Shown here one piece after another: positions 1-40,802 of a DNA stretch of 41,501 nt. Both the position numbers and the translations under genes were made by a program. The stretch covers positions 1 through 41,501 of the IMG/VR virus record IMGVR_UViG_3300016265_000843; one strand, written 5' to 3'. The notes below the pieces were generated by a model. That model had not been told where the DNA came from. It searched no databases and worked only from the letters and a program-made list of their open reading frames with translations. Each line of letters opens with the position of its first letter. Positions within the stretch are counted from its first letter, which is position 1. This DNA is from a virus. Its lineage: Duplodnaviria > Caudoviricetes.

Positions 1-255
1 GAGGAGCAGGCCAAGGCTGCCGCCGCCGCCAAGGCCGATGCCGAGCGCCGCGCCGCCCTGCAGCGCCGCATTGAGGAAGCTGCCGCCGTGGACGTTCATG
101 CGAACGACGAAGCGGTGACCCGCCAGACCTGGCAGCTGCTGGTGTCCCAGCTGCAGGAAGCCATGGCCGGCATGACCCGGCTCCAGGTGGCCGAAGCCAT
201 CGCCGATGGCCGCCTGCACGACGCCATCACCATCAACTGGGGGGTGATGGCATGA
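1..255 (+). CDS. C-terminal fragment of a coiled-coil phage protein (probably the same gene that starts at 41167)
   Basis: Frame 1 is open from base 1 (EEQAKAAAAAKADAERRAALQ...VAEAIADGRLHDAITINWGVMA*); its TGA overlaps the ATG at 252 (ATGA). Not in the supplied ORF track. Confidence 0.7.
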   Translation, partial: EEQAKAAAAAKADAERRAALQRRIEEAAAVDVHANDEAVTRQTWQLLVSQLQEAMAGMTRLQVAEAIADGRLHDAITINWGVMA

Positions 256-896
256 ACTGCCCCCAATGCGGTCACGGTCACACCCGCGTCCGCGATACCA
301 AGCGCGTTCTGGAGGGCCTGCGCCGTTACCGGCAATGCGCCAAATGCCGCCATCCGTTCGGCACGCTGGAACGGATCGAGCTGTGGGATCCAACGGTTGG
401 CGCCTACGGCGTGGTCGACGCCGGCGCCCCCGTCCCGCCACTGGCCCTGGTGCCGCCCGCCTCGGTGGTGATCACCCCTCCAGAGCCACAGCCCGAACCC
501 GTCGCAGCGGAGGCGCCCGCCGCACCGGCAGCAGGCCGGATGACCCGGTTCATGCCCAGCGTGGAAGACCTGCCCGATGCGATCTGCCTCGACGCGGCGC
601 CGCTGCTGCTGAGCTGGTGGTGCGAGGCGCGGCGAAGCAAGCATCAGGGCCGCGCCACCTGGACCCGCGCTGCCTGGCAGGCGTCGGCTGATCGGGTGGC
701 GCAGCTGCCCGATGCGCAACAGCTGGCCCTGTGTCAGGCCGGCAATGAACACGGCTGGCAGGCGCTGAAGCCTGAATACCTGGCGGGCTCTGGTCCTGCC
801 CTGCCCCCGGCGCCGGCCGTTGTGGCCGCCGGCCGGTTGATGCCAAAGGATCCCGCAATGCTCGCCGCTCTGGACGCATGGCCCGAAACCGCCTGA
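252..896 (+). CDS. NrdR-type Zn-ribbon domain fused via a Pro/Ala linker to a putative replication-initiator-like C-terminal domain
   Basis: N-term MNCPQCGH..TRVRDT....LRRYRQCAKC...FGTLE matches the NrdR N-terminal zinc ribbon pattern, with no ATP cone; C-term W..ARRSK...TWT.AA...NEHGWQAL resembles the 'W...RK...T..A...NGWQGL' ending of phage initiators. Confidence 0.6.
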   Translation: MNCPQCGHGHTRVRDTKRVLEGLRRYRQCAKCRHPFGTLERIELWDPTVGAYGVVDAGAPVPPLALVPPASVVITPPEPQPEPVAAEAPAAPAAGRMTRFMPSVEDLPDAICLDAAPLLLSWWCEARRSKHQGRATWTRAAWQASADRVAQLPDAQQLALCQAGNEHGWQALKPEYLAGSGPALPPAPAVVAAGRLMPKDPAMLAALDAWPETA

Positions 897-3063: not shown

Positions 3064-3725
3064 CCATTGACACCACCCGCGACCTACTGATCAGCCTGTC
3101 GTCGCACATGGCCTACATGCAGGGCCAACTGGAAGCACACCACGAGCTTGATGACCTAGAGGACTTCTACTGGTATCGCGAGAGTGTCGCATTGCGGCAG
3201 AAGGTGACGGATGCCCTGGCAGAGGAGACGGCTGTGCCGCTGCCTGTAGCAGATGCGGTGGCGACAGCAGAAAGTGAATGCCTGTATGTATTGTCAACTG
3301 CAACAGACCGACCATTGACACCGCACTTGATTGAGGATTTTTATCGTCAGTTTTGCGGCATTATTGAGGGGCTTGTGGATGCCCTTGGTAAGGATAAACC
3401 GACTGAACCCGCACCCCCAGCTGATGGGGAGGTGGCGGAGTTGGTGGCTCAATTGAAATCGCGGCACTACGGGCCTGGCGCATTGGACCGCGCCGCCGAG
3501 CTGCTGGAGCGGCAGGCGCTGGTGCCGGTGGCTGTGAGCGAGCGGCCGTGGGAGCGCGAGGGTTGGTGCGACGCGGAGGGGAACTGCTGGCTGGGCGCAA
3601 ACGTGTTTGATGGTGCCCCGTCGACGTGGCTCTACGGCCCATCTGCTTGGGCCGAGCGATTCCCGCATATTCATCGTGTCTTGCTCCCCGCCCACGCCCT
3701 GCCGCTGCCGGAGGTGGGCGAGTAA
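3060..3725 (+). CDS. Hypothetical modular protein, paralog 2
   Basis: Shares its C-terminal domain with 2364..2837; stop overlaps the exonuclease ATG. Confidence 0.7.
   Translation: MTIDTTRDLLISLSSHMAYMQGQLEAHHELDDLEDFYWYRESVALRQKVTDALAEETAVPLPVADAVATAESECLYVLSTATDRPLTPHLIEDFYRQFCGIIEGLVDALGKDKPTEPAPPADGEVAELVAQLKSRHYGPGALDRAAELLERQALVPVAVSERPWEREGWCDAEGNCWLGANVFDGAPSTWLYGPSAWAERFPHIHRVLLPAHALPLPEVGE
3408..3544 (+). repeat. Intragenic direct repeat copy 2 (partner 2517..2647)
   Basis: Same two matching blocks as copy 1. Confidence 0.9.
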
Positions 3726-8576: not shown

Positions 8577-8680
8577 TGAGCGCATGAGTTGATCTGCACG
8601 GGTGGAGCTAAACGGGCCTCCTGCGGGAGATACCCCGCTGCGGTGAAGCAACGGACAGAGGCTCGCAATCCCTTCGGCCA
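8572..8680 (+). promoter_or_regulatory. Capsid gene promoter/leader region
   Basis: CATAAT (8572-8577), CTGCAC GG GTGGAG motif (8594-8607), CTCC-TGCG-GGAG hairpin in a ~100 nt leader. Confidence 0.5.
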
Positions 8681-28675: not shown

Positions 28676-28861
28676 ATGACCATGGAGCCAGCCACGATCA
28701 TTGCTGCCCTGGGGCTCCTCGGTGCCGGCGTTGCCGGTATCTGGAAGATCGCCGGGCAGTTCGGTGATTTCCGCGGCCGGACCAACACCTGCATCGAGCA
28801 CCTCACGCGGCTGACCAGCAAGCACGACGAGCGGATCTCCACCCTTGAGAGGGCCCGCTGA
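28676..28861 (+). CDS. Small membrane protein with coiled-coil tail (possible lysis accessory)
   Basis: N-terminal hydrophobic helix IIAALGLLGAGVAGIW; ends HDERISTLE. Confidence 0.6.
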   Translation: MTMEPATIIAALGLLGAGVAGIWKIAGQFGDFRGRTNTCIEHLTRLTSKHDERISTLERAR

Positions 28862-29046
28862 TGGATCGCATCGCCAGCTATGTCGCCGTCGCCGTCGCCA
28901 TCCACGGCCTGGCGCTGGTGATCGTCAACATCACCCCCACCCCCAAGGACAACGAAGCCCTCGACAACATCAGCCGCCTGGCCGTGAAGACCTATCGACT
29001 GATCGAGGTCATCGCCGGGCTGTGGGGCCCCCTGGCCAAGCGCTGA
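28861..29046 (+). CDS. Putative holin-like small membrane protein
   Basis: Hydrophobic N-terminus and VNITPTPKDNE motif. Confidence 0.55.
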   Translation: MDRIASYVAVAVAIHGLALVIVNITPTPKDNEALDNISRLAVKTYRLIEVIAGLWGPLAKR

Positions 29047-29066
29047 ATCCCTGCACCTGTGAAACC

Positions 29067-29363
29067 ATGGCCGACCTCGCCAAACAGCTCGAAGACCTCC
29101 ACGCTGCCGTCGTCGAAACCGTCAAGACCCGCATCGAAAACGGCGGCACCCGCGACGACAACGGCAACCTCCTCGAACCCCTCAGCAACGACGACCTCCG
29201 CGTCGCCCTGCAGCTGCTGAAGCAGAACCAGATCAGTGCCGCTGCCATGCCAAGCACCCCAACGGCAGACCTGGCGCGAATGGCCGGCAAGCTGAACTTC
29301 CAGACCCTGGAAGCAAAGGCCAAGGTCGTGCCCATCCGCGCAGACGACAAGCTCAGCGCCTGA
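29067..29363 (+). CDS. Terminase small subunit (T7 gp18-like)
   Basis: LEDLHAAV...DLRVALQLLKQNQI pattern; ATG at 29067. Confidence 0.75.
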   Translation: MADLAKQLEDLHAAVVETVKTRIENGGTRDDNGNLLEPLSNDDLRVALQLLKQNQISAAAMPSTPTADLARMAGKLNFQTLEAKAKVVPIRADDKLSA

Positions 29364-31119
29364 CGCCCCCGTAGGCCATGCCACGAGGCCGCGGCGTCCA
29401 ACCAAGCGCCAGAGCATCAATGCTGGCGCCCGTCTCGTCAAACCACGCTTTCAGGTTGGCCTCGTCGATCTCGTCTTGGCGAACCTGACGCGCCACCTTC
29501 TGGTCCTGCGCGGCGGCCTCCACAAACCAGCCGACGCCCAGCGATAAGGCATCAATCCGGTCGTCAAACTGCAGCGCCCCACGCTCGGTCGTGATTCGAC
29601 TGAGCTGGTACATCAACGAGCGGGCGTGGCCGCTGTCAGGATCGCGCTCAGCGCCGGCCCAGTCCTGTTGGATCACCTCTTGATTCACGACCAGGCGGTG
29701 CTGCTGCACCACTGGGGCCAGCACGTCGACGATCCGCCGTTCCTTCTGCCCTGACACGCGCTTCTCCTCGACCGAGCAGGGATGAACCGCCTTCACCACG
29801 GGTTGCAGCAGTGCGGTGAACATGCCATCGCCCAGGTTGGATTCCGCCACGATGGTGTTCACCTTCCACCGCAGCGCCTTCTGCGCCAGCAGCTGCAGAA
29901 CCTCTGGCTCGTACCCCCTGGTCGTGCCACCGGCCTCCAGCAGGAACAGGTTGCCATTCAGCTCTGCAATCACCGCCCAGGCCAGCTCATCGCTACCGCG
30001 GCCGGATGGATCCACCGCCAGGATGCACCGCCAGGTTTCCTTCTGCGGCACCCACCCCTGCACCAGCGCCGGGCCGTAATAGGTGCGGTCACTGCCGAGC
30101 CCCACGCATGGCAGGCTCTGCAGGCGGTGCTCATTGGCCGAGGACCACCCCACCACGTCTGGCAACGCCTTGCCATCCAGCGGCATCACGATCAGATCGC
30201 CCAGCCGGATCGGGTAGCGATCAAGCGTCGACAGGCGGCAGTTCAGCATCAGCTGCAGTTGCACGCCGGCTCGCGTCGTCCGCATTTCCCGGCTGCGCAG
30301 TTCCTGCTCGCCAAAACGCTCAGGGTCGGTCGGCTTGCCGGCCAGGCTCGGGTCGGCTTCAACCTCTGCTGCGATCAGTGGATCCAGCCCACCCTCGTAA
30401 CACTCCCACTGATCCGGGTCTGCCGGGTTGGGGTATCGCGCCGGCCAGTACCGGATCGCGTAGTTCCGCTCACGCACCAGCCGCAGATAGAGCGATGTCT
30501 CCAGGTGCGGCGTGCCGAGGAACATGATCATCCGCGGCAGATCCTGGCCTTCATCCGGCTTGAGGATCATTTCGAGCTCGGTCACGGCCTGCGCCAGGCG
30601 CTCCTGCTTGAGCGGCGTGATCGAGTTGTTCAGCGTCTCGATGTCGTCTGGGATGGCGCAGGTGCAGCGCTTGCCGGTCAATGCAGGCGACAGGATGCCA
30701 ACCGCTCGCACCGATGGGCTCTGATCAACGATCGCAGGCCCCACGTCAAAGGCCTTGGTTGAGCTCCGGCCATCGGCCCGTGGCTCCAGGCACCGCAGGA
30801 TGTCAATGTCGCGGATGCAGCGCTGCATGAAGGTCGTAACCTCCACCGCCTTCTCCAGCGTGCTGCCAGGGATCAGCACCTTCTCGTTGAACGGATCGAT
30901 CCGCAGCCGATGCAACGCCCGGAAGGCGGCCATGGTGCTCTTGGCCACACCACGAAAACCCACCGTGATCTGACGGTTTGGGCCGTTCTCCATCCAGTCG
31001 CAGATGCCCAGCTGCTGCTTGGTGGGCTCATCCGCCAGGTTCAGCTCCCGCAGCAGGTAGCAGACGAAGTACGGGAACCGCCCAGGGCCAATCTCAGGCG
31101 GGATCGGAGTCCAGCTCAC
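29353..31119 (-). CDS. Terminase large subunit (T7 gp19-like), inverted
   Basis: PTKQQ, GFRGVAKS (Walker A), IPDDIE (Walker B), LGTP, YWPARYP, VDPSGRGSDE, DDRIDAL nuclease motifs. Confidence 0.96.
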   Translation of the reverse strand: MSWTPIPPEIGPGRFPYFVCYLLRELNLADEPTKQQLGICDWMENGPNRQITVGFRGVAKSTMAAFRALHRLRIDPFNEKVLIPGSTLEKAVEVTTFMQRCIRDIDILRCLEPRADGRSSTKAFDVGPAIVDQSPSVRAVGILSPALTGKRCTCAIPDDIETLNNSITPLKQERLAQAVTELEMILKPDEGQDLPRMIMFLGTPHLETSLYLRLVRERNYAIRYWPARYPNPADPDQWECYEGGLDPLIAAEVEADPSLAGKPTDPERFGEQELRSREMRTTRAGVQLQLMLNCRLSTLDRYPIRLGDLIVMPLDGKALPDVVGWSSANEHRLQSLPCVGLGSDRTYYGPALVQGWVPQKETWRCILAVDPSGRGSDELAWAVIAELNGNLFLLEAGGTTRGYEPEVLQLLAQKALRWKVNTIVAESNLGDGMFTALLQPVVKAVHPCSVEEKRVSGQKERRIVDVLAPVVQQHRLVVNQEVIQQDWAGAERDPDSGHARSLMYQLSRITTERGALQFDDRIDALSLGVGWFVEAAAQDQKVARQVRQDEIDEANLKAWFDETGASIDALALGWTPRPRGMAYGGVRR

Positions 31120-31480: not shown

Positions 31481-31864
31481 TCAGTCGTTTTCTTCCAGCG
31501 CCAGCCTGAACTGCGCCCACAGGTGGCCGCGGTTCTGTGCGCTGCCGACGCTTGCGATGTACGGGTTCAAGATGAAGTAATGCGCTCCAGCCTGGCTGTC
31601 GTACACCTTGACCAAGGCATTGACCACACGAAGTCGGCCAATCGCTTTGACGCATGAGATGTAGTGACAGCCGATCAGTTCGGCGATTGCCTTGGCCGAG
31701 CACCGGACTTTGCCAACCCGGTCCATGCGGCTGATCATCGCCAGCAAAACGCAGATGTCCATCGGCTGTAGCTGCTTGGTCGCCAGTGACTGGAACAGGC
31801 CTTCCAGCCCCTCCGCTTGATACACCATTGCGAATCGCTCTTTGTCGTCAAACTGTTGCGTCAT
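31481..31864 (-). CDS. Winged-HTH DNA-binding protein, RepL-like
   Basis: D..VLLAMI..MD, SAKAIAELIG...SCVKAIGRL HTH, wing ending YFILNP. Confidence 0.7.
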   Translation of the reverse strand: MTQQFDDKERFAMVYQAEGLEGLFQSLATKQLQPMDICVLLAMISRMDRVGKVRCSAKAIAELIGCHYISCVKAIGRLRVVNALVKVYDSQAGAHYFILNPYIASVGSAQNRGHLWAQFRLALEEND

Positions 31865-31910: not shown

Positions 31911-31951
31911 TCCTAGGAAACTCGTAGGATTTTGGTAGGAAAGCCCTAGGG
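31911..31951. repeat. Four 8-bp boxes at 11-bp period (TCCTAGGA consensus)
   Basis: TCCTAGGA 31911, TCGTAGGA 31922, TGGTAGGA 31933, CCCTAGGG 31944. Confidence 0.85.
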
Positions 31952-32857
31952 CCGCATTGGCAATCCCTTGTCTCACGGGTGGTCTTGCGAGAAGGCAAAA
32001 TAAGAACCCTGTCATACCAAGGGATTCCATTTCGGCTGGGCTAACCCACATTAGCCCGGAGCACTCCGACAACCCAACCCCCCACAGGGCCGTTTTCGAG
32101 CTCTCTAATTCTTAGATAAAGGGTTAATACCCCCGGGGCACCCGGGGACGGCCAGGCAACCCAGCTCGCAAGCTCGCTTCACACGAAGGATTAGGCCGGA
32201 AATGGGTTTCCCCCGTCGACAGATCCGGCCAGCAGCCACGCCCCACCCCACCTCCGGGGCCTTCTCACTGCATCACCCCTGCAGAAGCGCCAGGAAGGCC
32301 CCTCCGATGGGGTGGGGCTCCACTGACACCGATCCCTTCCTTCCGTGCCCTTCCTGCCCCTGCTGGGCACCTCTCCGCGTGTGTTCGTGTTCGATCGGTG
32401 TCCCAGCTTCACCCCTGCAGATCAGTTCGCACCCCTCGCACCTCCCTCATCGCAGACCGCTTTCCCGTTTTTGGGTCGCGTGATGTGGTGGGTTCCCAGC
32501 GCTGGGCGAGCTGCTCCGCCCCCCGTGCCCCGGTCGTTGCCGCCCCTGGGGGCGTCGCTGCCGCTGGCGGGGGCCTGCCTGCCCTGCTGCCGCAGCGCTA
32601 AGGCCAGGGCCCTGCCTGCGCCCGCCTCCGTTGCGGATTGTTGATCCGCTGCCACCTGCCCGGGCGCCAGCTGGCGGGGCCTGCTGGCCGGGCCGGGCGC
32701 CGGCTGCCGGCCTGCCCTGATCCCTGAATGTTAAGAGTTGCGACAGTTACCCACCGCCACCCGCCACCCGGTCGCCATCCGCCCCGATCCGCGCCCACAC
32801 TGTCGGCAGGTCTGCATAGCTGCAGGCCACACCACACCACACCAAGGAGGAGGACCA

Positions 32858-33214
32858 ATGAGGACGGAGACGAGCGCAGCGGGCCTGGGGGAGTTGCACC
32901 CGGTCGAGCTGTTGTTGCTGCTGGGGCTGGCGGTTGCGCTGGCGATTTGGGAGCTGAGCGTGGCTCTGATCGGGCTGGCGGGCGCCGCGGCCGGCTGGCG
33001 GGCGCCGATGGCACCGGCCACGGCACCGGCTGAGATCGAGCGGGCGCCGATGGCACCGGCTGCACCGATGGCGCACCCGATCGGCGAAGCGCTGGCGGAG
33101 CTGGGGACGCTGACGGTTCGGGAGCTGCGGGCGATGGCCCGGGAAGCCGGCCACCGCCAACTGGCGCGCAATGGGCGCCGGGCTGATCTGCTGGCAGCGC
33201 TGGGGGCGATCTGA
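32858..33214 (+). CDS. Early membrane-anchored protein with C-terminal Rho-N/HeH-like domain
   Basis: ATG 32858 after (CCACA)3 + AGGAGGAGG; hydrophobic segment; LTVRELRAMAREAG...RRADLLAAL. Confidence 0.7.
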   Translation: MRTETSAAGLGELHPVELLLLLGLAVALAIWELSVALIGLAGAAAGWRAPMAPATAPAEIERAPMAPAAPMAHPIGEALAELGTLTVRELRAMAREAGHRQLARNGRRADLLAALGAI

Positions 33215-33408
33215 TGCGGCGCTGGATTCCTGAGCTGATCGGCGCTGCTGTGCCGCTGGCGGCTGTTGCGGGCTGGATCTGTTGGATGCAGGCGGTCTAC
33301 GGGCCGACCTATGCGGACGCCACCCGATACGTGTTGCCGGCATGGCTGACGGAGGCGACGACACCGGCGCCGACCAGGGCGATGCCTGAGCGATTCCCTG
33401 GCCCCTGA
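33214..33408 (+). CDS. Small early membrane protein
   Basis: TGATG coupling; hydrophobic N-terminus. Confidence 0.55.
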   Translation: MRRWIPELIGAAVPLAAVAGWICWMQAVYGPTYADATRYVLPAWLTEATTPAPTRAMPERFPGP

Positions 33409-33469
33409 GGGGGCGGGCCCGGCCGGGGCCTGTAACCCGGCCACACCACACCACACGAGAGGACCACCG

Positions 33470-33736
33470 ATGACGACGACACGCGACGCGCTGACACGCG
33501 AACCGCTGCCAAACCCATGGCCCGGCAACCCCAACGCCTACGAATGCCCATGGGGCTGTAACGGCACCGGCTCGCTGCCGTGGTTTGCCCACGTGGCGGG
33601 CGGGGTCTGCTTCGCCTGCCACGGCAAGGGCTGGCAGCTAGGGCGGGGCAGCCGCGGCCCGATCAAGCGGACGCCACAGCAGACGCCAACCGGGCGCCGC
33701 TGGCGCCGGGAGGGCGGCCGGATCGTCCCGGCCTGA
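33470..33736 (+). CDS. Early Zn-finger protein (DnaJ-like CxxCxGxG pattern)
   Basis: CPWGCNGTG...GGVCFACHGKG. Confidence 0.7.
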   Translation: MTTTRDALTREPLPNPWPGNPNAYECPWGCNGTGSLPWFAHVAGGVCFACHGKGWQLGRGSRGPIKRTPQQTPTGRRWRREGGRIVPA

Positions 33737-33811
33737 TCGACGGCAGCACGGAGGCCCAGGGCGATGCCCGCGGCCTCTCTGCTGCCCTCAGGCAGCAACC
33801 ACACCACACCG
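33733..33811 (+). repeat. Structured intergenic direct repeat copy 1 (upstream of ardA)
   Basis: First 31 bp identical to 34403-34433; long hairpin plus CCACACCACACC. Confidence 0.9.
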
Positions 33812-33827
33812 CACAGGAGGGCCACCC

Positions 33828-34406
33828 ATGGCCACCACAACCACAACCAGGCCGCAAGCAATCGCCACCACATGCCCCGCCGTGGGCGTTTACGTGGCGT
33901 GTCTCGCCGCCTACAACGCCGGCCGCCTTCATGGGGCCTGGATTGATCTGGAGGAATGCCACGACGTCGACGACCTACAGGAGGCGATCGACTGGGTTCT
34001 GAAGGGCAGCCCTGAACCAGGGGCGGAGGAATGGGCCGTTCATGATTCCTGCGGCCTGCCCGGCTATCTGAGCCGGACGGAATGGCCGGAGCTGGCGCAG
34101 CTGATCGAGTGGGCGCAGGTCGCGGCCGAGCTCGGCGACGACGACGAGCTGGAGGCCTACCGGATCGAATGCGACAACCAGGGCGAGACCGTCACGATCG
34201 ACGCCTTCCGCGACGTTTACCGCGGGGTCCACACCAGCGGCGAGGACTACGCCCAGGAGCTGGCAGAGGAGATCGGCGCCATCCCGGCGGATGCCGGTTG
34301 GCCCGTCCGTTGCATCGATTGGGAGGCGGCTTGGCGAGAGCTCACCTTTGACGGCTACCGCGACGAGCGCTGCAGCAGCGGCGGGGTTCACGTGTTCTGC
34401 GGCTGA
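33828..34406 (+). CDS. ardA: Antirestriction protein ArdA (DNA mimic)
   Basis: VYVACLAAYNAGRLHGAWID, AEEWAVHD, EDYAQELAEE, IDWEAAWREL; very acidic. Confidence 0.92.
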   Translation: MATTTTTRPQAIATTCPAVGVYVACLAAYNAGRLHGAWIDLEECHDVDDLQEAIDWVLKGSPEPGAEEWAVHDSCGLPGYLSRTEWPELAQLIEWAQVAAELGDDDELEAYRIECDNQGETVTIDAFRDVYRGVHTSGEDYAQELAEEIGAIPADAGWPVRCIDWEAAWRELTFDGYRDERCSSGGVHVFCG

Positions 34407-34485
34407 TCGACGGCAGCACGGAGGCCCAGGGCGGCGACGCCCGCGGCTTCCCTGCTGCCCTCCAGGCAGCGACCACACCACACCG
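34403..34485 (+). repeat. Structured intergenic direct repeat copy 2 (downstream of ardA)
   Basis: Matches 33733..33811 with structure-preserving differences. Confidence 0.9.
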
Positions 34486-34497
34486 AGAGGATCACCG

Positions 34498-34845
34498 ATG
34501 ACGACCACGACACAGGAGCCCGCCTACGTCACGGCCGGGGAGTCGAACATGAAGCAATGGCCGCCACAGCGCCGCGCAGACGATGCGGCGAAGTGGGGAC
34601 CACTGACTCAAACCGAGCTCCTCCGGCGCCTGGTGGCTGAAGACCGTTGGCACAGGGACGCGTGCATGCGCCGAGGGATCAAAGACAGCCCGGCGTATTT
34701 CATCGCCTGGAAGGAGCTTCAGGACCGGCGGCATCGCTGCATCCAGCGCACCGGCCGCGACTGCGGCTGCGGCCTGCAGATTGACCGGCTGCCCCTCCAC
34801 GCCGAGAGGGTCGCCCGTGAGGTGCAAACGGCCACCCACTGGTGA
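34498..34845 (+). CDS. Hypothetical early protein
   Basis: ATG 34498 after CCACACCACACC-GAGAGG. Confidence 0.6.
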   Translation: MTTTTQEPAYVTAGESNMKQWPPQRRADDAAKWGPLTQTELLRRLVAEDRWHRDACMRRGIKDSPAYFIAWKELQDRRHRCIQRTGRDCGCGLQIDRLPLHAERVAREVQTATHW

Positions 34846-34909
34846 ACCACAGCGGCCCGCCGGAGCCGCACCCAATCCGGCGCCAACCACACCACCCCGA
34901 GGCCATCCA

Positions 34910-35086
34910 ATGCCCCGAACTCGTTTCTATCCGATGCCGTGCCGGTCGCTCTACTGCGGCGAGACCACCTGCCCGGAGACGTGCCCGCACCGGCAGGAGC
35001 TGCAAGCGTTCCAGCAGTGGCGCCAGCAGACCAACGCCTACCAGCCAGACCCGATCTGGTGCCCCACTGCATGGACCGAGGCCTGA
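34910..35086 (+). CDS. Small Cys-rich early protein
   Basis: ATG 34910 after CCACACCACCCC-GAGG; CRSLYCGETTCPETCPH. Confidence 0.6.
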   Translation: MPRTRFYPMPCRSLYCGETTCPETCPHRQELQAFQQWRQQTNAYQPDPIWCPTAWTEA

Positions 35087-35089
35087 TCG

Positions 35090-35278
35090 ATGACCACCGC
35101 CGAACTCACGCCCGACGAGCGGGCGCTCATCACCGCCCTGGTGGGCCCGCGCCTGCGGGTCCTGTCCGATCTGCTAGCCGCTCAGGTGGTCGGGCTTCCG
35201 CCCGGCTGCAGCGACTGGGCGGACACCGCCGACGCGCTGGCCATCGCCCGCGGGTTACTGGTGAAGGTGAACCAATGA
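35090..35278 (+). CDS. Hypothetical early protein
   Basis: 62 aa; coupled to the downstream ATG. Confidence 0.55.
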   Translation: MTTAELTPDERALITALVGPRLRVLSDLLAAQVVGLPPGCSDWADTADALAIARGLLVKVNQ

Positions 35279-35559
35279 GCCGCCGCCGTATCCCGTGGCT
35301 GATCAAGGCCGCAACCATGCCCTGCGTTGCCGTGTTTGCGGGGTTTGTCCTGGTGCCGTGCTGGGTTGTTTCCAGCTGGTGGCGCTGGCATCGAGCCGGC
35401 GCCAAGGTGCACGACCGTGTGACCAGGCAGCGCCGCGACCAGGCCGTAGCCGCCTGGCAGGCAATCGACGCCGCCACCCGCGCCGAACTGCTGGCCCATG
35501 GCCTGATGGACACCCCCGAAAACCGCACGCGGCTGCGCGGCAGCAGGAGGCGCGCATGA
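35275..35559 (+). CDS. Small early membrane protein
   Basis: ATG 35275; hydrophobic CVAVFAGFVLVPCWVV; ATGA coupling at both ends. Confidence 0.55.
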   Translation: MSRRRIPWLIKAATMPCVAVFAGFVLVPCWVVSSWWRWHRAGAKVHDRVTRQRRDQAVAAWQAIDAATRAELLAHGLMDTPENRTRLRGSRRRA

Positions 35560-35915
35560 ATGCCGAACAGCAGGCTGCCGAGCGGGTGGCCGGGATGCTG
35601 GGCGGCATCCGCACCGCCTTCAAGACCGCCCGGGCGAATGCGCCACATGCAGCAGTCGCTGAGGTGCTGCTGTGGATCGCCGCCGGCTACGACCACCGCT
35701 CCGACCTGGTGCAGATCACCGGGATGAACGAAACGGAGGTGAAACGGGTGGTGTGCTCGCTGATCGGCCGTGGCCGCAGGGATCACGGCCGCTATGTCGA
35801 CAGCGCCTTGCAGCTGGTGGAGGCCAGACCCCACCCGCATCGCCGAGGTGAACAGCTGCGCCTGACCCCCGAGGCCAAGGCCTTGATCTCCAGTACGTTT
35901 GTTCCACTTGCATAG
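35556..35915 (+). CDS. MarR-like winged-HTH protein 1
   Basis: AGGAGG RBS; AEVLLWIA, RSDLVQITGM.ETEVKRVV, LVEARPHP.RRGEQLRLTPEAK. Confidence 0.7.
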   Translation: MNAEQQAAERVAGMLGGIRTAFKTARANAPHAAVAEVLLWIAAGYDHRSDLVQITGMNETEVKRVVCSLIGRGRRDHGRYVDSALQLVEARPHPHRRGEQLRLTPEAKALISSTFVPLA

Positions 35916-36049
35916 GTGCAGAGCATTATGCGCGTTTCGCTGCTGATCAGCTTCGAGCTACCGGCCGGCTCCCACTGGTATCACTGGTCTGTCTGGCATC
36001 AGCGCCATGGGGGGCGTCACTCCCTAGCTGTGCAGCGGTGCCAGAGTGC

Positions 36050-36068
36050 GCCTAGGAGTTTCCTAGGT
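36050..36068. promoter_or_regulatory. Two TCCTAGGA-type boxes at 11-bp period before the MarR2-integrase genes
   Basis: GCCTAGGA 36050, TCCTAGGT 36061. Confidence 0.7.
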
Positions 36069-36076
36069 GTTTCCCA

Positions 36077-36400
36077 TTGGATCTGGCTCAACTGCAAAGG
36101 GCTCTGGGCCTTTTCGCAACTTTGGACCCGACAGAGTTTCCGCTCCATCGGGCGCAGCTGTTTCTTGAGGTCGCCAGCGCGGGAGCGGCAGGCGTCACCT
36201 TTGCCCAGCTGGAGGAGGCCCTGAACCTCACGAACGGCTCCGTCTCTCGCGGCGTCGCCTCCCTGGGGGCGATCGACCGCCGCGGTGGAGCCGGCTACCG
36301 ACTGGTGGAGACCTTCAAGGACCCCGCCGAGCCCCGCCGGTTTCGGGTGCGCCTCTCAGCCAAGGGCCGCGCCTTGCTGAGGCAACTCGAAACCACCTGA
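36077..36400 (+). CDS. MarR-like winged-HTH protein 2
   Basis: FLEVA, TFAQLEEALNLTNGSVSRGVASL, LVETFKDPAEPRRFRVRLSAKGR; TTG start. Confidence 0.85.
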   Translation: MDLAQLQRALGLFATLDPTEFPLHRAQLFLEVASAGAAGVTFAQLEEALNLTNGSVSRGVASLGAIDRRGGAGYRLVETFKDPAEPRRFRVRLSAKGRALLRQLETT

Positions 36401-36425
36401 TCACCACTCGCAACCACACCACACC

Positions 36426-37421
36426 ATGGCCGGATCAGTCAGAAAGGCGCCTGATGGCACCTGGATCGCCGACGTTTCGGTGAACGGCACTCGCCGCACC
36501 GCCCGGTGTCGCAGCAAGGCCGACGCCCTGCAGCGCAAACGGGAACTGCTGGAACAGCTGCTGCAGCGCGACGCCCATCCCACCGTGGGGTTCACGCTGG
36601 CCGACGCCCGAGCGCTGAGCTTGCGGGTGCGCTGGGACGGCACCGCCTACGAGCGAACCGCTGCCATCTACAGCCAACAGGCGGTCGACCACTTCGGCAG
36701 CGGCTGCCCGGTGGAGGCCATCACCACGCCAGCCGTCGACGCCTGGCGCCAGAAGCTGCTCGCCGGCGGCAACCGCCCGTCGACCGTCAACCGCAAGGTG
36801 TCGGCGCTGCGAGCGATGCTGGCCGACGCTCAGCTTCATGGCCACCTGGTGGAGCTGCCGCGGATGCCGCAGCAGCTGCGCAACGGTGGCCACCGCGATC
36901 GAGTGATCAGCGACGACGAACGCGATCGCCTCTGCCTGGCATTCCGCGAGCTGGGACAACCCGCCGCGGCTGATCTGCTGGTGTTCCTGCTGGAGACCGC
37001 CTGCCGGTGGGGGGAGGCCGAGCGGTTGCGCTGCGAGCACGTCGACTTGGTGAAGGGCCGCGCCACGTTCTGGGCCACCAAGAACGGCAAGCCCCGCACC
37101 GTCCCGTTGACCAGGCGGGCTGTTGATGCCCTGCTGCCTCACCACACCGCAGGCCTGCCAGCGGCTCGCGTGTGGCCCTACTCCTACCGACAGTTCCAGT
37201 GGTGCTGGGACACGGCCAAACAGGCCGCCGGCCTGGGCGAGGACCGCTCGCTCACGATCCACATCACACGCCACACCTGTGCCTCCAGGCTGGCCAGCCG
37301 TGGCATCCCCCTGCACCAGCTGATGGCCTTTGGTGGATGGACATCGCTGGCCTCGGTGCAGCGCTATCTGCACCTGAACACCGACGCCTTGAGCGCTTGC
37401 GTCAGTGCATTGGAGGCCTGA
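36426..37421 (+). CDS. int: Tyrosine integrase
   Basis: Catalytic set: TACR (R), TKNGK (K), HITRH (HxxR), GGW, VQRYLH (Y); N-terminal arm-binding-like segment; STVNRKVSAL. Confidence 0.95.
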   Translation: MAGSVRKAPDGTWIADVSVNGTRRTARCRSKADALQRKRELLEQLLQRDAHPTVGFTLADARALSLRVRWDGTAYERTAAIYSQQAVDHFGSGCPVEAITTPAVDAWRQKLLAGGNRPSTVNRKVSALRAMLADAQLHGHLVELPRMPQQLRNGGHRDRVISDDERDRLCLAFRELGQPAAADLLVFLLETACRWGEAERLRCEHVDLVKGRATFWATKNGKPRTVPLTRRAVDALLPHHTAGLPAARVWPYSYRQFQWCWDTAKQAAGLGEDRSLTIHITRHTCASRLASRGIPLHQLMAFGGWTSLASVQRYLHLNTDALSACVSALEA

Positions 37422-37433
37422 TCAACCCACGCC

Positions 37434-37472
37434 AACGCCCCCGTTTGTGGATGCGTCCACCGGGGGCGTTTT
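37434..37472 (+). terminator. Hairpin/terminator after the integrase
   Basis: AACGCCCCCG-TTT-GTGGA-TGCG-TCCAC-CGGGGGCGTT-TT. Confidence 0.7.
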
Positions 37473-37545
37473 GCTGCCGCAGCGATCGGCAGCGACGCGC
37501 AGCACGCAGCGCCCCAAAAACCCCAGATCCCTTATGCTTACTGGC

Positions 37546-37589
37546 GGGAGCATGGCGGAAATGGCAGACGCAGCGGACTTAAAAACCGC
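37546..37589 (+). other. Putative attP core: 5' half of tRNA-Leu(UAA)
   Basis: GGGAGCA-TG-GCGGAAATGGCAGACGC-A-GCGGA-CTTAAAA-ACCGC gives acceptor 5' strand, D arm and anticodon arm (TAA at 37580-37582); no T arm or acceptor 3' strand follows. Confidence 0.85.
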
Positions 37590-37740
37590 TCTGCTCATCT
37601 GCATCCACCCAGAGTTAAGCGAAACAGCAGCCTGTGGCAGGCGAAACGCGGCTCTGCGAGGGTGAAGCGGTCGAGCCGCTGAAAACCCCAGTTGGATGCG
37701 GCGCGAAATCAGAAAACGTGCGTCCACCCCTGTGGATTTG

Positions 37741-40062
37741 ATGCCGACGCAGCAGCAGATCGCATCTGCCCGGGCCATCCGCGCCCGCTTGATCAGCCGC
37801 GGCCAGGAGAGCTCAACCGAATACGGCAGGGCCCTGTTTGCCACCCATGGGCAGGCCCTGGCCGACGCGCTTGATGCGCTGATGACCCGCTTCGTGGTGG
37901 ACCCGGCCATCGCTGGCCCCCACTACGAGGCGCTGCCGCTGCTGCTGCACTTCGCCACGGTGGGCGTCCGGCCAGTCGCCAGCGTGGCGCTGACCAAGGT
38001 GCTCGACGGGATCAGCGCAAGGCATCGCCACCGCAAACTGGCCATGGCCATCGGCCGCGCCATCGAGGACGAGGTGCGAGCCGGGCGGATCAAGCACCAC
38101 GACCGGGACACCCTGCGGCTCTTGCTCCGTCATGAAGGCAAGCGAACGGTGCTGGCCCCCAGCACGTTGCGCAGCCTCCGCCTACCAGCGGATCGATGGA
38201 CTCAGCACGATCGGGTATCGGTGGGATCCCTGCTGCTGCGGCTGATCGTCTCCGAAACCGACCTGGTGCAGATCGTCTCCCAGGCAGTGCGGGGCGTCAT
38301 GGTGCTGATGGTGGAGGCAACACCGGCGACGCTGGAGCTGGTGCGCTCGATGCCCCTGGACATCAGGCCAGAACGCGGCCGGCCCCAGCTGACGCCACCC
38401 GAACCACGAGACGGTTACGCCGGCCTGGTGCGACGGCGCGACGGCGCGTCGACGGATTACATGCAGCAGGCCGGCCCGGCTGCGCTGGCGGCCGTGCAAC
38501 GGCTGGAGGCCCAGCCGGTGACGGTTGACCCCTGGATGGCCGATGTGCAGCAGCAGGCATGGGCGGCAAACATCCGCGGCCTGTTCTCTGTGACCCGCGA
38601 TCCGGCGCAAGCTCCGCCGCGACCGCACGACGCGACCGACCACGAGGCGATGGCCAACTGGAGACGGCAGGAGCGGGCCGCCTGGGCTGATGGGCGGGAG
38701 CATGGCCGTGCCCGCGAGCGCATTGACGAAGCGATCCGCGAGGCGCAGTGCCTCGCCGGACAATCGATCTGGTTCCGCTACGACCTGGACTTTCGCGGGC
38801 GGGTCTACACCGCCAATCGCACGACCACCCATCAGGGGCCTGACCACGAAAAGGCGCTGCTGTGGCTGCCGCCCGAGCCCTGCGACGAGGAGGCCGCCGA
38901 CTGGATGCTGCGGGCCTGCGCTGGCCACTGGGGGCTGAGCCGTGCCAGCTGGGATGAACGGCTGCGTTGGGGGCGGGACAACATCGATCGGCTGGTCGCC
39001 GTGGCCGACGCGCCGCTGGATCAGGTGGAGCTCTGGCGTGATGCCGCCGATCCCTGGCAGTTCCTGCAGATGGCCCGCGCCTTTCGGCTGTGGCTGGGGG
39101 ACCCGGCAACCCCGATCGGTGCGCCGGTGCGCCTCGATCAGACCACCTCTGGCCTGGGCATCGCCGCAGCCCTGGTGCGCGACGAGCGATTGGCGCGTGA
39201 AACCAATCTGATCGGGTCTACCCGGCACGACATCTATCAGCGGGTGGCCGATGAGCTGGTGGCCGCGCTGCAGCGTGAGCTGGAGGCGGGGGTGCCATCC
39301 CATCAACGCCATGCCGCGCAGTGGCTGGAGATCGGCATTACCCGCTCGCTGTGCAAGGAGCCGGTGATGGCGGCCATCTATGGAGGGCAGTTCCAGAGCC
39401 TGTTCGATGGTCTGGCGGACCACCTGCGCAATGCGGCGCTGCCAAAGCGGGCCAGTGAATACGAGCGCAGCGTGGTGATTCCGGCGCGTTTTCTGGCGAA
39501 GCTGATGAAGGAGACCCTTCAGCCAGAGCTGGCGCCGTTGCTGGCGCTGAAGGACTGGCTGAAGGGAGCCAGCGCCGCCGTGGTGAAACAGCAGCAGCAG
39601 TTGCGCTGGACGTCGCCGAGCGGTTTCCCGGTGGTGCTAGGCGGCAAGCGGCGGGCTCATGCGCCAGCTCACACGCTGCTGCATGGCTCCAGGGGATGGG
39701 AGACACCTGACAGCGACGAGCGCCGGCGCGAGCTGAGCGTGCTGGCAACCAACCGAAGCATCACCGCCAACCTGGTGCATTCGTTTGACGCGGCCTTGGT
39801 CCATGCCGTGATCTGCAGGGCTGAAGCAGTGAGCGCACACGTCCTGACAAATCACGATTGCTTTGCCGTGACGCCAGCTCGGGCTCAGTGGCTGCACCAA
39901 ACGCTGCTTGGCGAGTTGCGTTCCCTTTACATGCCGGACTGGCTTGATGAAATCCGAGCCGAGATCACGACACACAGCGGCATTCCTGGCCTGCCAGCGC
40001 CGCCAATGGTTGGCACGCTGAACCCGGCTCGCATCGGCCAGAACCCCTACGTCTTTTCCTAG
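37741..40062 (+). CDS. Single-subunit T7-like DNA-directed RNA polymerase
   Basis: DFRGRVY, DPWQFL, PVRLDQTTSG (motif A), RSLCKEPVMAAIYGG (motif B), WTSPSGFPV, NLVHSFDA, NHDCF (motif C); start 37741 preferred over 37696. Confidence 0.95.
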   Translation: MPTQQQIASARAIRARLISRGQESSTEYGRALFATHGQALADALDALMTRFVVDPAIAGPHYEALPLLLHFATVGVRPVASVALTKVLDGISARHRHRKLAMAIGRAIEDEVRAGRIKHHDRDTLRLLLRHEGKRTVLAPSTLRSLRLPADRWTQHDRVSVGSLLLRLIVSETDLVQIVSQAVRGVMVLMVEATPATLELVRSMPLDIRPERGRPQLTPPEPRDGYAGLVRRRDGASTDYMQQAGPAALAAVQRLEAQPVTVDPWMADVQQQAWAANIRGLFSVTRDPAQAPPRPHDATDHEAMANWRRQERAAWADGREHGRARERIDEAIREAQCLAGQSIWFRYDLDFRGRVYTANRTTTHQGPDHEKALLWLPPEPCDEEAADWMLRACAGHWGLSRASWDERLRWGRDNIDRLVAVADAPLDQVELWRDAADPWQFLQMARAFRLWLGDPATPIGAPVRLDQTTSGLGIAAALVRDERLARETNLIGSTRHDIYQRVADELVAALQRELEAGVPSHQRHAAQWLEIGITRSLCKEPVMAAIYGGQFQSLFDGLADHLRNAALPKRASEYERSVVIPARFLAKLMKETLQPELAPLLALKDWLKGASAAVVKQQQQLRWTSPSGFPVVLGGKRRAHAPAHTLLHGSRGWETPDSDERRRELSVLATNRSITANLVHSFDAALVHAVICRAEAVSAHVLTNHDCFAVTPARAQWLHQTLLGELRSLYMPDWLDEIRAEITTHSGIPGLPAPPMVGTLNPARIGQNPYVFS

Positions 40063-40116
40063 GACTCTCCTAAGACGGTCCTAGGTGTTGCCTAGGAGGC
40101 ATCAACGCTGTACGTT
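40057..40116 (+). promoter_or_regulatory. Four TCCTAGGA-type boxes at 11-bp period overlapping a sigma70-like promoter
   Basis: TCCTAGGA 40057, TCCTAAGA 40068, TCCTAGGT 40079, GCCTAGGA 40090; TTGCCT (40088)-17 bp-TACGTT (40111). Confidence 0.8.
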
Positions 40117-40145: not shown

Positions 40146-40802
40146 ATGGGATCCAAAGTCATCGTGTCGCCCGCTGGTTCGCTCCAGTGGGCCAAGGTCT
40201 GCAAGCCCGGCGTGGTCAACCGGGGCAAGCCCGGCGAGCGGGAGCAGTGGTCCTGCGACCTGCTGCTGGAGAAGGGCGACGCCGAGGCGCAGGCGTTTGT
40301 GAAGCAGTTGAAGGCTGAGTTCGTTGAGCGCCACGGCAATGCCGCCCGGCCCGGCCCAAACGGCCTGCCCTTCAAGACCCACCTGGATCAGGCCGGCGAC
40401 GAAACCAACCTCTGGCAGTTCCGTTTTGCCCGGAACGTGGTCACCAGCCGCGGCCATGAACTGAGCCCGCCGCTGGTGCAGGACGCAGCGGGAACGCTGT
40501 GGCCCAAGGACGTGCTGATCGGCAACGGCAGCACCGGCAAGGTGGCGTTCGACATCTGGCACTGGTCCAACCCCGAGGCCGGGAAAGGCATCAGCCTCAA
40601 CCTGCAGGGCGTGCGTGTGCTCTACCTGGTGGAGTACCAGGCGCCTGATGTGGGCGAAGCGTTCGGCGAACCCGAGGCCGGCTATGTGCTGACCGGCCAG
40701 GAGACCCGCACCGCACCTCAGGGCCAGGCCCCGGCCCCGGCTGCAACGCCGGCTGCCGCCCTTGATGGCTGGCCGGATGACAGCGAGGAGGTCCCGTTCT
40801 GA
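40146..40802 (+). CDS. Single-stranded DNA-binding protein (T7 gp2.5-like)
   Basis: SPAGSLQWAKV..P, PPLVQDA.G, IGNGSTGKV, GISLNLQGVRVL.LVEY, acidic tail ending EEVPF. Confidence 0.88.
   Translation: MGSKVIVSPAGSLQWAKVCKPGVVNRGKPGEREQWSCDLLLEKGDAEAQAFVKQLKAEFVERHGNAARPGPNGLPFKTHLDQAGDETNLWQFRFARNVVTSRGHELSPPLVQDAAGTLWPKDVLIGNGSTGKVAFDIWHWSNPEAGKGISLNLQGVRVLYLVEYQAPDVGEAFGEPEAGYVLTGQETRTAPQGQAPAPAATPAAALDGWPDDSEEVPF

Follow-up and report, generated by a model that had tools for sequence, protein, structure and literature searches.

CCTAGG box arrays at three control points of a T7-like cyanophage: candidate operators of a MarR-like protein encoded before the integrase

The stretch of DNA analysed here, hereafter the window, is the whole of IMG/VR record IMGVR_UViG_3300016265_000843 (41,501 nucleotides), a circularly permuted T7-like phage in which short boxes with the core CCTAGG stand in arrays at three places (sites A, B and C). 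Its gene set comprises an RNA polymerase (RNAP), a single-stranded DNA-binding protein (SSB), RusA, an exonuclease, T7-type head and tail genes, an inverted terL, an integrase (int) and a MarR-like gene; the polymerase and primase-helicase of phage P-SSP7, used as queries, had no significant match in the window. Among isolates, Synechococcus phage S-SRP02 is the closest (RNAP 45%), with an identical gene order. The features on which the argument draws are as follows (strand in brackets where one applies; ORF, open reading frame).

31481..31864 (-): RepL-like winged-helix protein upstream of terL, recognition helix highly variable
31911..31951: site A, four boxes at an 11-bp step (two CCTAGG, two degenerate), 50-90 bp 5' of the minus-strand RepL-like gene
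35556..35915 (+): MarR1, a second MarR-like winged helix, recognition helix variable
35928..36224 (+): conserved unannotated ORF with a ~55-aa beta-rich core, carrying site B and overlapping MarR2 in another frame
36030..36043 (+): degenerate copy of a second palindrome, CTGCAC-NN-GTGCAG, directly 5' of site B
36050..36068: site B, two boxes, the first core 26 bp before the MarR2 start codon and within the overlapping small ORF
36077..36400 (+): MarR2, a 107-aa MarR-like winged helix, ortholog of P-SSP7 gp0.7/pMarR and candidate reader of the boxes
36426..37421 (+): tyrosine integrase
37553..37588 (+): attP core between int and RNAP, corresponding to part of a host tRNA-Leu gene and the only stretch here matched by host tRNA contigs
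37696..40062 (+): T7-like RNAP
40057..40097: site C, four boxes; relative to the SSB promoter their centres are at -62.5, -51.5 (the degenerate one), -40.5 and -29.5
40088..40116 (+): predicted promoter of the host sigma70 type, TTGCCT-17-TACGTT, serving SSB, RusA and the genes that follow
40146..40802 (+): gp2.5-like SSB, first gene downstream of the site C promoter

The boxes of site A start at 31911 (TCCTAGGA), 31922 (TCGTAGGA), 31933 (TGGTAGGA) and 31944 (CCCTAGGG), those of site B at 36050 (GCCTAGGA) and 36061 (TCCTAGGT), and those of site C at 40057 (TCCTAGGA), 40068 (TCCTAAGA), 40079 (TCCTAGGT) and 40090 (GCCTAGGA). These coordinates, the copy numbers (4/2/4) and the exact 11-bp step had been given by an initial annotation of the window and all proved correct on recheck. 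Its description of the boxes as 8-bp palindromes holds for the palindromic core CCTAGG of seven out of ten; the boxes at 31922, 31933 and 40068 are not palindromes, and the exact TCCTAGGA occurs in only two. The arrays hold seven of the eight CCTAGG of the whole genome, in which CTAG is indeed scarce (17 observed vs 32.0 expected from 3-mers). Five pairs of CCTAGG lie within 40 bp of each other in the window, every one at 11, 22 or 33 bp, while not one of 300 third-order Markov simulated genomes contained a pair within that distance. The box arrays are real and not a product of chance. The box forms the core of a 14-bp palindrome with the consensus GACTCCTAGGAGTC, derived from a matrix of 47 sites outside the window's near lineage; when the genome is ranked by this matrix, six of the window boxes come out on top and a seventh is placed 13th, the other three falling outside the top 14.

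Conservation was counted mainly over distinct regions from loci found through RNAP alone, which are related by descent, so that the counts are not independent. CCTAGG is present 5' of MarR2 in 37/40 of these regions (site B), 5' of SSB in 51/61 (site C) and 5' of the RepL-like gene in 19/29 (site A). It is absent from all 189 regions of four control sets (int 0/42, portal 0/49, MarR1 0/42, NrdR-like 0/56), and a further control, 5' of terL, has it in 1/29. No CCTAGG was found 5' of RNAP (0/6 regions), nor, in the window, between int and RNAP. All 16 matches to WCCTAGGW in four complete relatives (three of them first found by the motif) lie inside sites A, B and C, and the core is present at all three sites in S-SRP02. 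We conclude that the box is a real conserved operator-like element of an integrating clade of T7-like cyanophages. Seven distant MarR-bearing phages (P-SSP7, S-CBP1, S-CBP2, P-SSP2, HTVC019P, HTVC201P and RHph_I20) lack CCTAGG at the matching sites, an absence that fits covariation, yet is confounded by descent.

Several other origins of the motif were considered. The boxes are not promoters of the phage RNAP, a reading rejected because the late genes have none. In 15 of 32 relatives the leader of the major capsid gene has a CCTAGG as well, there as the loop of a conserved hairpin with a varying loop; the core at sites A, B and C lacks such loop variation and the window flanks do not pair, and these are therefore taken as DNA sites and not as RNA hairpins. 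The capsid-leader hairpin itself (~8612-8640 in the window) is conserved with interchangeable four-base loops and is a possible RNA processing site. Occurrences of CCTAGG within terL in the S-SRP02 lineage were taken as coding coincidence. A host transcription factor or methyltransferase might also read the boxes, given that the motif does not change between marine and freshwater lineages and that CCTAGG is a known cyanobacterial restriction site (AvrII). However, the 12-bp pattern was found in only 6/151 host-family genomes, below the reversed control and with two of its seven sites on phage contigs, and pairs of CCTAGG are absent from 21 of 41 genomes, the rest having no shared spacing or flanks. 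We regard a host reader as highly improbable; since no host regulon was found, it is very likely that the box is a conserved element read by a phage protein, as the initial annotation had proposed.

The strict one-turn phasing assumed at first holds better at some sites than at others. Of the 49 neighbouring pairs at site C, 41 are separated by 11, 22 or 23 bp (18, 3 and 20 pairs, respectively, with 8 at other distances). At site A only 6/15 pairs are at 11 bp and 7/15 at 13–14 bp, with an overall range of 9–28 bp, and at site B, where most relatives carry a single box, 6/12 are at 11 bp and 4/12 at 12 bp. The number of boxes per site varies from one to four across relatives, with many having a single one. 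On the MarR2 tree the 11-bp state requires three changes, at least two of which are forced by well-supported branches, and further lineages contain pairs of a strong and a weak box at 11 bp. Judged from these comparisons, one-turn spacing is recurrent, and one or two turns are nearly the rule at site C, but spacing is not fixed system-wide. The 11-bp arrays appear to be a recurring, lineage-specific stacking of strong and weak sites along one DNA face, which would likely result in graded or cooperative occupancy.

Site C shows most directly what a bound protein could do. The hexamers TTGCCT (40088–40093) and TACGTT (40111–40116) are present with 17 bp between them, the fourth box overlaps the -35 as had been noted, and the first box contains the RNAP stop codon (TAG, 40060–40062). 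The promoter is below the threshold of a consensus scan, yet it is conserved in relatives: the pattern TT[GC]nnn-17/18-[TC]AnnnT occurs in 69 of 74 distinct RNAP-SSB regions, a set that includes motif-selected loci and in which a broad pattern was used for degenerate boxes. A box is centred between -40 and -44 in 52 of these 69 promoters and lies within the core in 54, with only five having none. The boxes of S-SRP02 are at -42.5 and -19.5, and in two relatives (L161 and L172) they flank the -10 on both sides with none at -41, a layout that fits repression only. The constant feature is the cover of the promoter by boxes, and repression is therefore favoured.

Site B lies within the unannotated ORF that overlaps MarR2. 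The frame of this ORF is open in 33/33 relatives, compared to 2–7/33 for the remaining five frames, and differences fall on the three codon positions as 206, 165 and 394, a third-position bias. Its protein is predicted as a three-stranded beta meander (pLDDT 79.1) and had no match in Atlas, PHROG, PDB or fold searches, from which neither novelty nor absence follows. Coding constraint (Thr-Pro-Arg-Ser in this ORF) was rejected as the cause of the boxes, as it does not account for sites A and C, and no synonymous changes are seen in the core. The second palindrome ends 4 bp 5' of the box core in 28/42 regions and 7 bp in 9/42; if it is a phage RNAP promoter, site B would consist of a promoter and an immediate operator, an arrangement for autorepression of MarR2-int. 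In the S-SRP02 lineage an extra CCTAGG box lies in the 3' end of MarR1, 11 bp downstream of a TACGTT hexamer. The window has a TACGTT hexamer in the 3' end of MarR1 as well (35894–35899), a possible host promoter for the MarR2-int unit.

The initial annotation had offered the RepL-like protein or a MarR-like protein as the reader of the boxes. We compared the first eight recognition-helix residues across 24 distinct MarR2/MarR1/RepL-like gene triples. The helix of MarR2 has a mean identity of 0.76 (rank 5/99 windows of the protein) with invariant N, S and R, that of MarR1 0.42 (rank 70/111) and that of the RepL-like protein only 0.34 (rank 109/119), which places it among the least conserved parts of the protein and speaks against the RepL-like protein as reader. 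MarR2 is ~30 residues shorter than classical MarR members and matches Pfam MarR_2 below cut-off (E 0.0032); its model (pLDDT 86.1) has MepR and MarR as best Foldseek matches. A homodimer through the first helix is predicted with a score of 0.63 (best control 0.00), at least 94% contact agreement between runs and pLDDT of at least 88. Among solved pairs 20 of 30 attained the score mark, and among single chains 1 of 23; that MarR2 attains it may reflect likeness to solved MarR dimers. MarR2 is 38.5% identical to P-SSP7 pMarR, reported as a self-interacting DNA-binding dimer that gives ladder-like shifts (PMC9692554), and residues S66, R67 and G106 of pMarR align with the invariant S57, R58 and G97 of MarR2. 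We consider MarR2 the probable reader of the CCTAGG boxes and, given that it reads them, its action would quite probably be mainly repressive.

A competing claim on MarR2 comes from the second 14-bp palindrome, CTGCAC-NN-GTGCAG. This has 15 copies in the window at up to two mismatches (4479, 8594, 10091, 13551, 26736, 28659, 29051, 31443, 32407, 32812, 35908, 40108 and 40127 among them) and heads most gene blocks, often 3–7 bp 5' of the start codon and preceded, a few bases upstream, by a -10-like hexamer. It is found at matching places in S-SRP02, has a degenerate copy between int and RNAP in the window, and takes the form CTAC...GTAG in one lineage and in relatives S37-C6/S31-C1. It is either a promoter of the phage RNAP or a second operator. 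The specificity-loop region of RNAP (~39600–39720) is short and varies strongly within the clade, whereas the palindrome is constant; because of this variation the palindrome is not securely an RNAP promoter, and the combination puts in question how this RNAP recognises promoters.

MarR2 might thus read the second palindrome, leaving CCTAGG to MarR1, the RepL-like protein, the NrdR-like protein or the product of the overlapping ORF. This motif is likewise a 6-2-6 palindrome that precedes MarR2 besides heading most gene blocks, it stays constant while the RNAP loop varies, and site A stands upstream of the RepL-like gene in the manner of an autoregulatory site. Against such a division of labour, the helices of MarR1 and the RepL-like protein vary and the box does not, the boxes stay at B and C in lineages with none at A, and relative S31-C1 has boxes while no RepL-like gene was found there. 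In addition, the second palindrome is placed like promoters of T7-like RNAPs and has a core in common with the Syn5 promoter (PMC3950665), and motifs at matching places in P-SSP7 and HTVC019P share the same core. We judge this alternative rather unlikely.

Site A is the least clear of the three in function. If the arrays were origin iterons bound by the RepL-like protein, they would supply the initiator and origin needed by a phage with no detectable DNA polymerase or primase-helicase; homologues of the protein have weak RepL and phage O-protein matches below the Pfam cut-off (the window protein itself having no RepL match), and a modestly AT-rich patch (28 of 50 AT) lies near 32081–32130, ~130 bp from the site. 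Like the iterons of F RepE, P1 RepA and lambda O, the boxes are short repeats at a helical-turn step near a winged-helix gene. Unlike those, they are palindromic and not direct repeats, vary in number (1–4 per site) and spacing (9–28 bp at A), and straddle a conserved promoter at site C, near which none of the most AT-rich windows lies and no unwinding element is apparent. Neither do they track the RepL-like helix, which has ten sequences in the 24 triples and no invariant residue, and S31-C1 keeps its boxes in spite of having its own primase. The iteron proposal of the initial annotation is accordingly abandoned as very improbable, while an initiator-bound origin somewhere in the phage is plausible. 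Also near site A, a purine-rich element (TAGAGAGATCAGAG-like, ~32095–32120, minus strand), 190–260 bp 5' of the RepL-like gene, is conserved across the clade in the divergent region, possibly as a packaging or origin signal.

A tRNA scan of the window found no tRNA genes. In one relative, which was binned with a cyanobacterium, the genes directly after int are tRNA-Thr, tRNA-Tyr and genes of host type, so that the clade appears to integrate at the int-RNAP position. The window targets tRNA-Leu, and two relatives target tRNA-Thr (L038, 11511–11582, and L052, 1600–1960). Our preferred interpretation, to which we would give about an even chance, is that the boxes are operators of the MarR-like dimer encoded before the integrase and act mainly in repression. 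MarR2 dimers bound at site C would mask the -35 or the core of the host-type promoter serving SSB and the replication genes; at site B they would limit expression of MarR2-int (autoregulation), and the RepL-like/terL unit would be gated from site A. With the phage integrated between int and RNAP, RNAP would be severed from the early promoters, and a repressor would therefore need to silence only these three points. This interpretation builds on the conservation and geometry of the boxes, their absence from controls, the conserved helix and the integration of a relative, together with a predicted MarR fold and dimer; from these we infer the identity of the reader, the sign of regulation, cooperativity and any role in lysogeny.

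A number of observations weigh against it. Boxes at -40.5 and -62.5 are in textbook activator positions, and canonical MarR dimers are expected to clash at 11-bp spacing on one DNA face. In two relatives (L133 and L134) the helix Asn is replaced by Pro and the boxes are kept; three (L186, L189 and L192) lack a site C box, though in L184 and L192, both of that lineage, the helix is still nearly standard; and S37-C6 has no boxes while S31-C1, with a near-identical MarR2 helix, has some. Two palindromes are constant and only one helix is, and the second palindrome, present at site B, could itself be the MarR2 site. Ten of the 29 RNAP-selected regions have no CCTAGG at site A, where a scan for sigma70-type promoters recognised none in either direction. 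As to lysogeny, no attL/attR junction for the window phage was seen in contigs of four runs. A prophage search gave a MarR2-like match in 15 of 301 host-family genomes, and the stretches around the matches in seven of these genomes (G160, G051, G285, G084, G132, G126 and G288) contained no int, RNAP or structural genes and no whole prophage. In published work, pMarR of P-SSP7 binds RNAP alpha and activates the host rne promoter, the arginine of the helix is generic (75/77 homologues; both PMC9692554), and marine relatives integrate at tRNA-Leu with no repressor homologue and no stable lysogens (PMC8776855).

Some of these points could be accommodated by the same operators and the same reader if MarR2 acted as a concentration-dependent switch. 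At low MarR2, the strong boxes at -40.5 and -62.5 would activate the host-RNAP promoter of the replication genes through RNAP alpha; at high MarR2, the weaker core box would close it, timing a lytic cycle with lysogeny not required. The activity of pMarR and the lack of stable lysogens in marine relatives just cited agree with this, as does the box at -40 to -44 being the most constant position (52/69), and three relatives (L004, L006 and L105) retain boxes at -62.5 and -40.5 but not the one at -29.5. On the other hand, L161 and L172 have boxes only around the -10, the core is occupied in 54 of the 69 promoters, and a dimer centred at -41 would likely cover the -35, so we hold a dual switch to be unlikely. 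Doubtful too is a fuller, lambda-like two-state switch, in which a single short MarR-like dimer, stacked along one DNA face at one-turn steps, would activate the replication promoter at low occupancy and close it at high, the second palindrome would serve another factor as a second layer, and integration would unplug the phage polymerase. Such a switch, if true, would give a T7-like cyanophage a defined lysogeny circuit.

Comparison with known regulators places the preferred repressor interpretation among circuits of a kind proposed before. CI of phage lambda at OR/PRM is likewise a dimeric regulator with graded palindromes round a promoter (one near -42, another within the core) and with autoregulation; here the fold is winged-helix and MarR-like with no S24 peptidase domain, there is no divergent cI/cro pair, and the sites are spread over 8 kb. 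In temperate T7-like phages, a MarR regulator has been hypothesised to repress through sites flanking the promoter upstream of RNAP (PMC10134795 on LUZ100, citing Boeckman et al. 2022). Both systems have a MarR-like gene directly before the integrase and repeated sites at promoters, and the attP core here likewise points to integration in a tRNA gene. They differ in that the sites of the hypothesised switch flank the promoter upstream of RNAP, where none of the six regions here has a box, whereas ours lie at a host-type promoter downstream of RNAP, at the MarR gene and at the terL unit, have a different sequence and belong to a phage without its own DNA polymerase. The element would work like the proposed MarR switch but lacks one of its features, sites at the RNAP promoter.

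The pMarR of P-SSP7 (gp0.7, PSSP7_011) is orthologous to MarR2, occupies the same place before int, forms a dimer and has the same key residues; it differs in activating the host rne promoter, and the available text of that study defines no palindromic phage operator (PMC9692554). P-SSP7 further differs from the window in that neither a gap nor a promoter separates RNAP from SSB and CCTAGG is missing from these sites. S-SRP02 (MW822601) shares the gene order and has boxes at all three sites, but at 14 bp at A, as a single box at B and at 23 bp at C; the main text of its description does not mention the sites and does not contain the word 'promoter' (PMC8790148). The statement of the initial annotation that no defined repressor circuit is known for integrase-bearing T7-like phages has therefore to be narrowed, as a MarR circuit with binding sites has been hypothesised (PMC10134795, citing Boeckman 2022) and the P-SSP7 ortholog studied biochemically (PMC9692554); what stands, in the parts of the literature covered, is that no repressor-operator pair has been demonstrated. 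Likewise, no operator is defined for these cyanophages in the literature searched, most subscription journals lying outside its coverage.

For the question of whether integrase-bearing T7-like cyanophages can become stable prophages, a candidate regulator, a probable 14-bp site and a target promoter can now be named. All three are present in the cultured pair of S-SRP02 and Synechococcus SR-C1, which makes the question experimentally testable. If the preferred interpretation is true, the pMarR/gp0.7 family would, for the first time in cyanophages within the literature searched, have a target in a phage genome; the kind of circuit has been proposed before, and the reader and sign of regulation given here are proposals.

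Several observations concern neighbouring parts of the genome. Orphan MarR2 homologues occur at 12 host-chromosome loci with neither motif at a constant place, which is uninformative; orphan homologues L064, L066, L067, L068 and L076 (on the chromosomes of G160, G051, G285 and G288) have no nearby phage genes. An NrdR/Ogr-like zinc ribbon is fused to a strongly conserved C-terminal domain (252–896, plus strand); in a clade without DNA polymerase or primase-helicase, this NrdR-like protein or the products of the next genes may recruit the host replisome. The inverted terL (29353–31119, minus strand) converges on terS (28845–29363, plus strand), and in S38-C3-like relatives the MarR-int block is relocated, with terL beside RNAP and the site C boxes still kept. 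The early region encodes an ArdA anti-restriction protein (33828–34406, plus strand). Two repeats of 90% identity, ~895 bp apart in neighbouring hypothetical genes (2512–2668 and 3403–3565), suggest a recent duplication. Finally, a CCACACCACACC-type repeat lies immediately 5' of early-gene start codons (32832, 33441, 33799 and similar positions before int).

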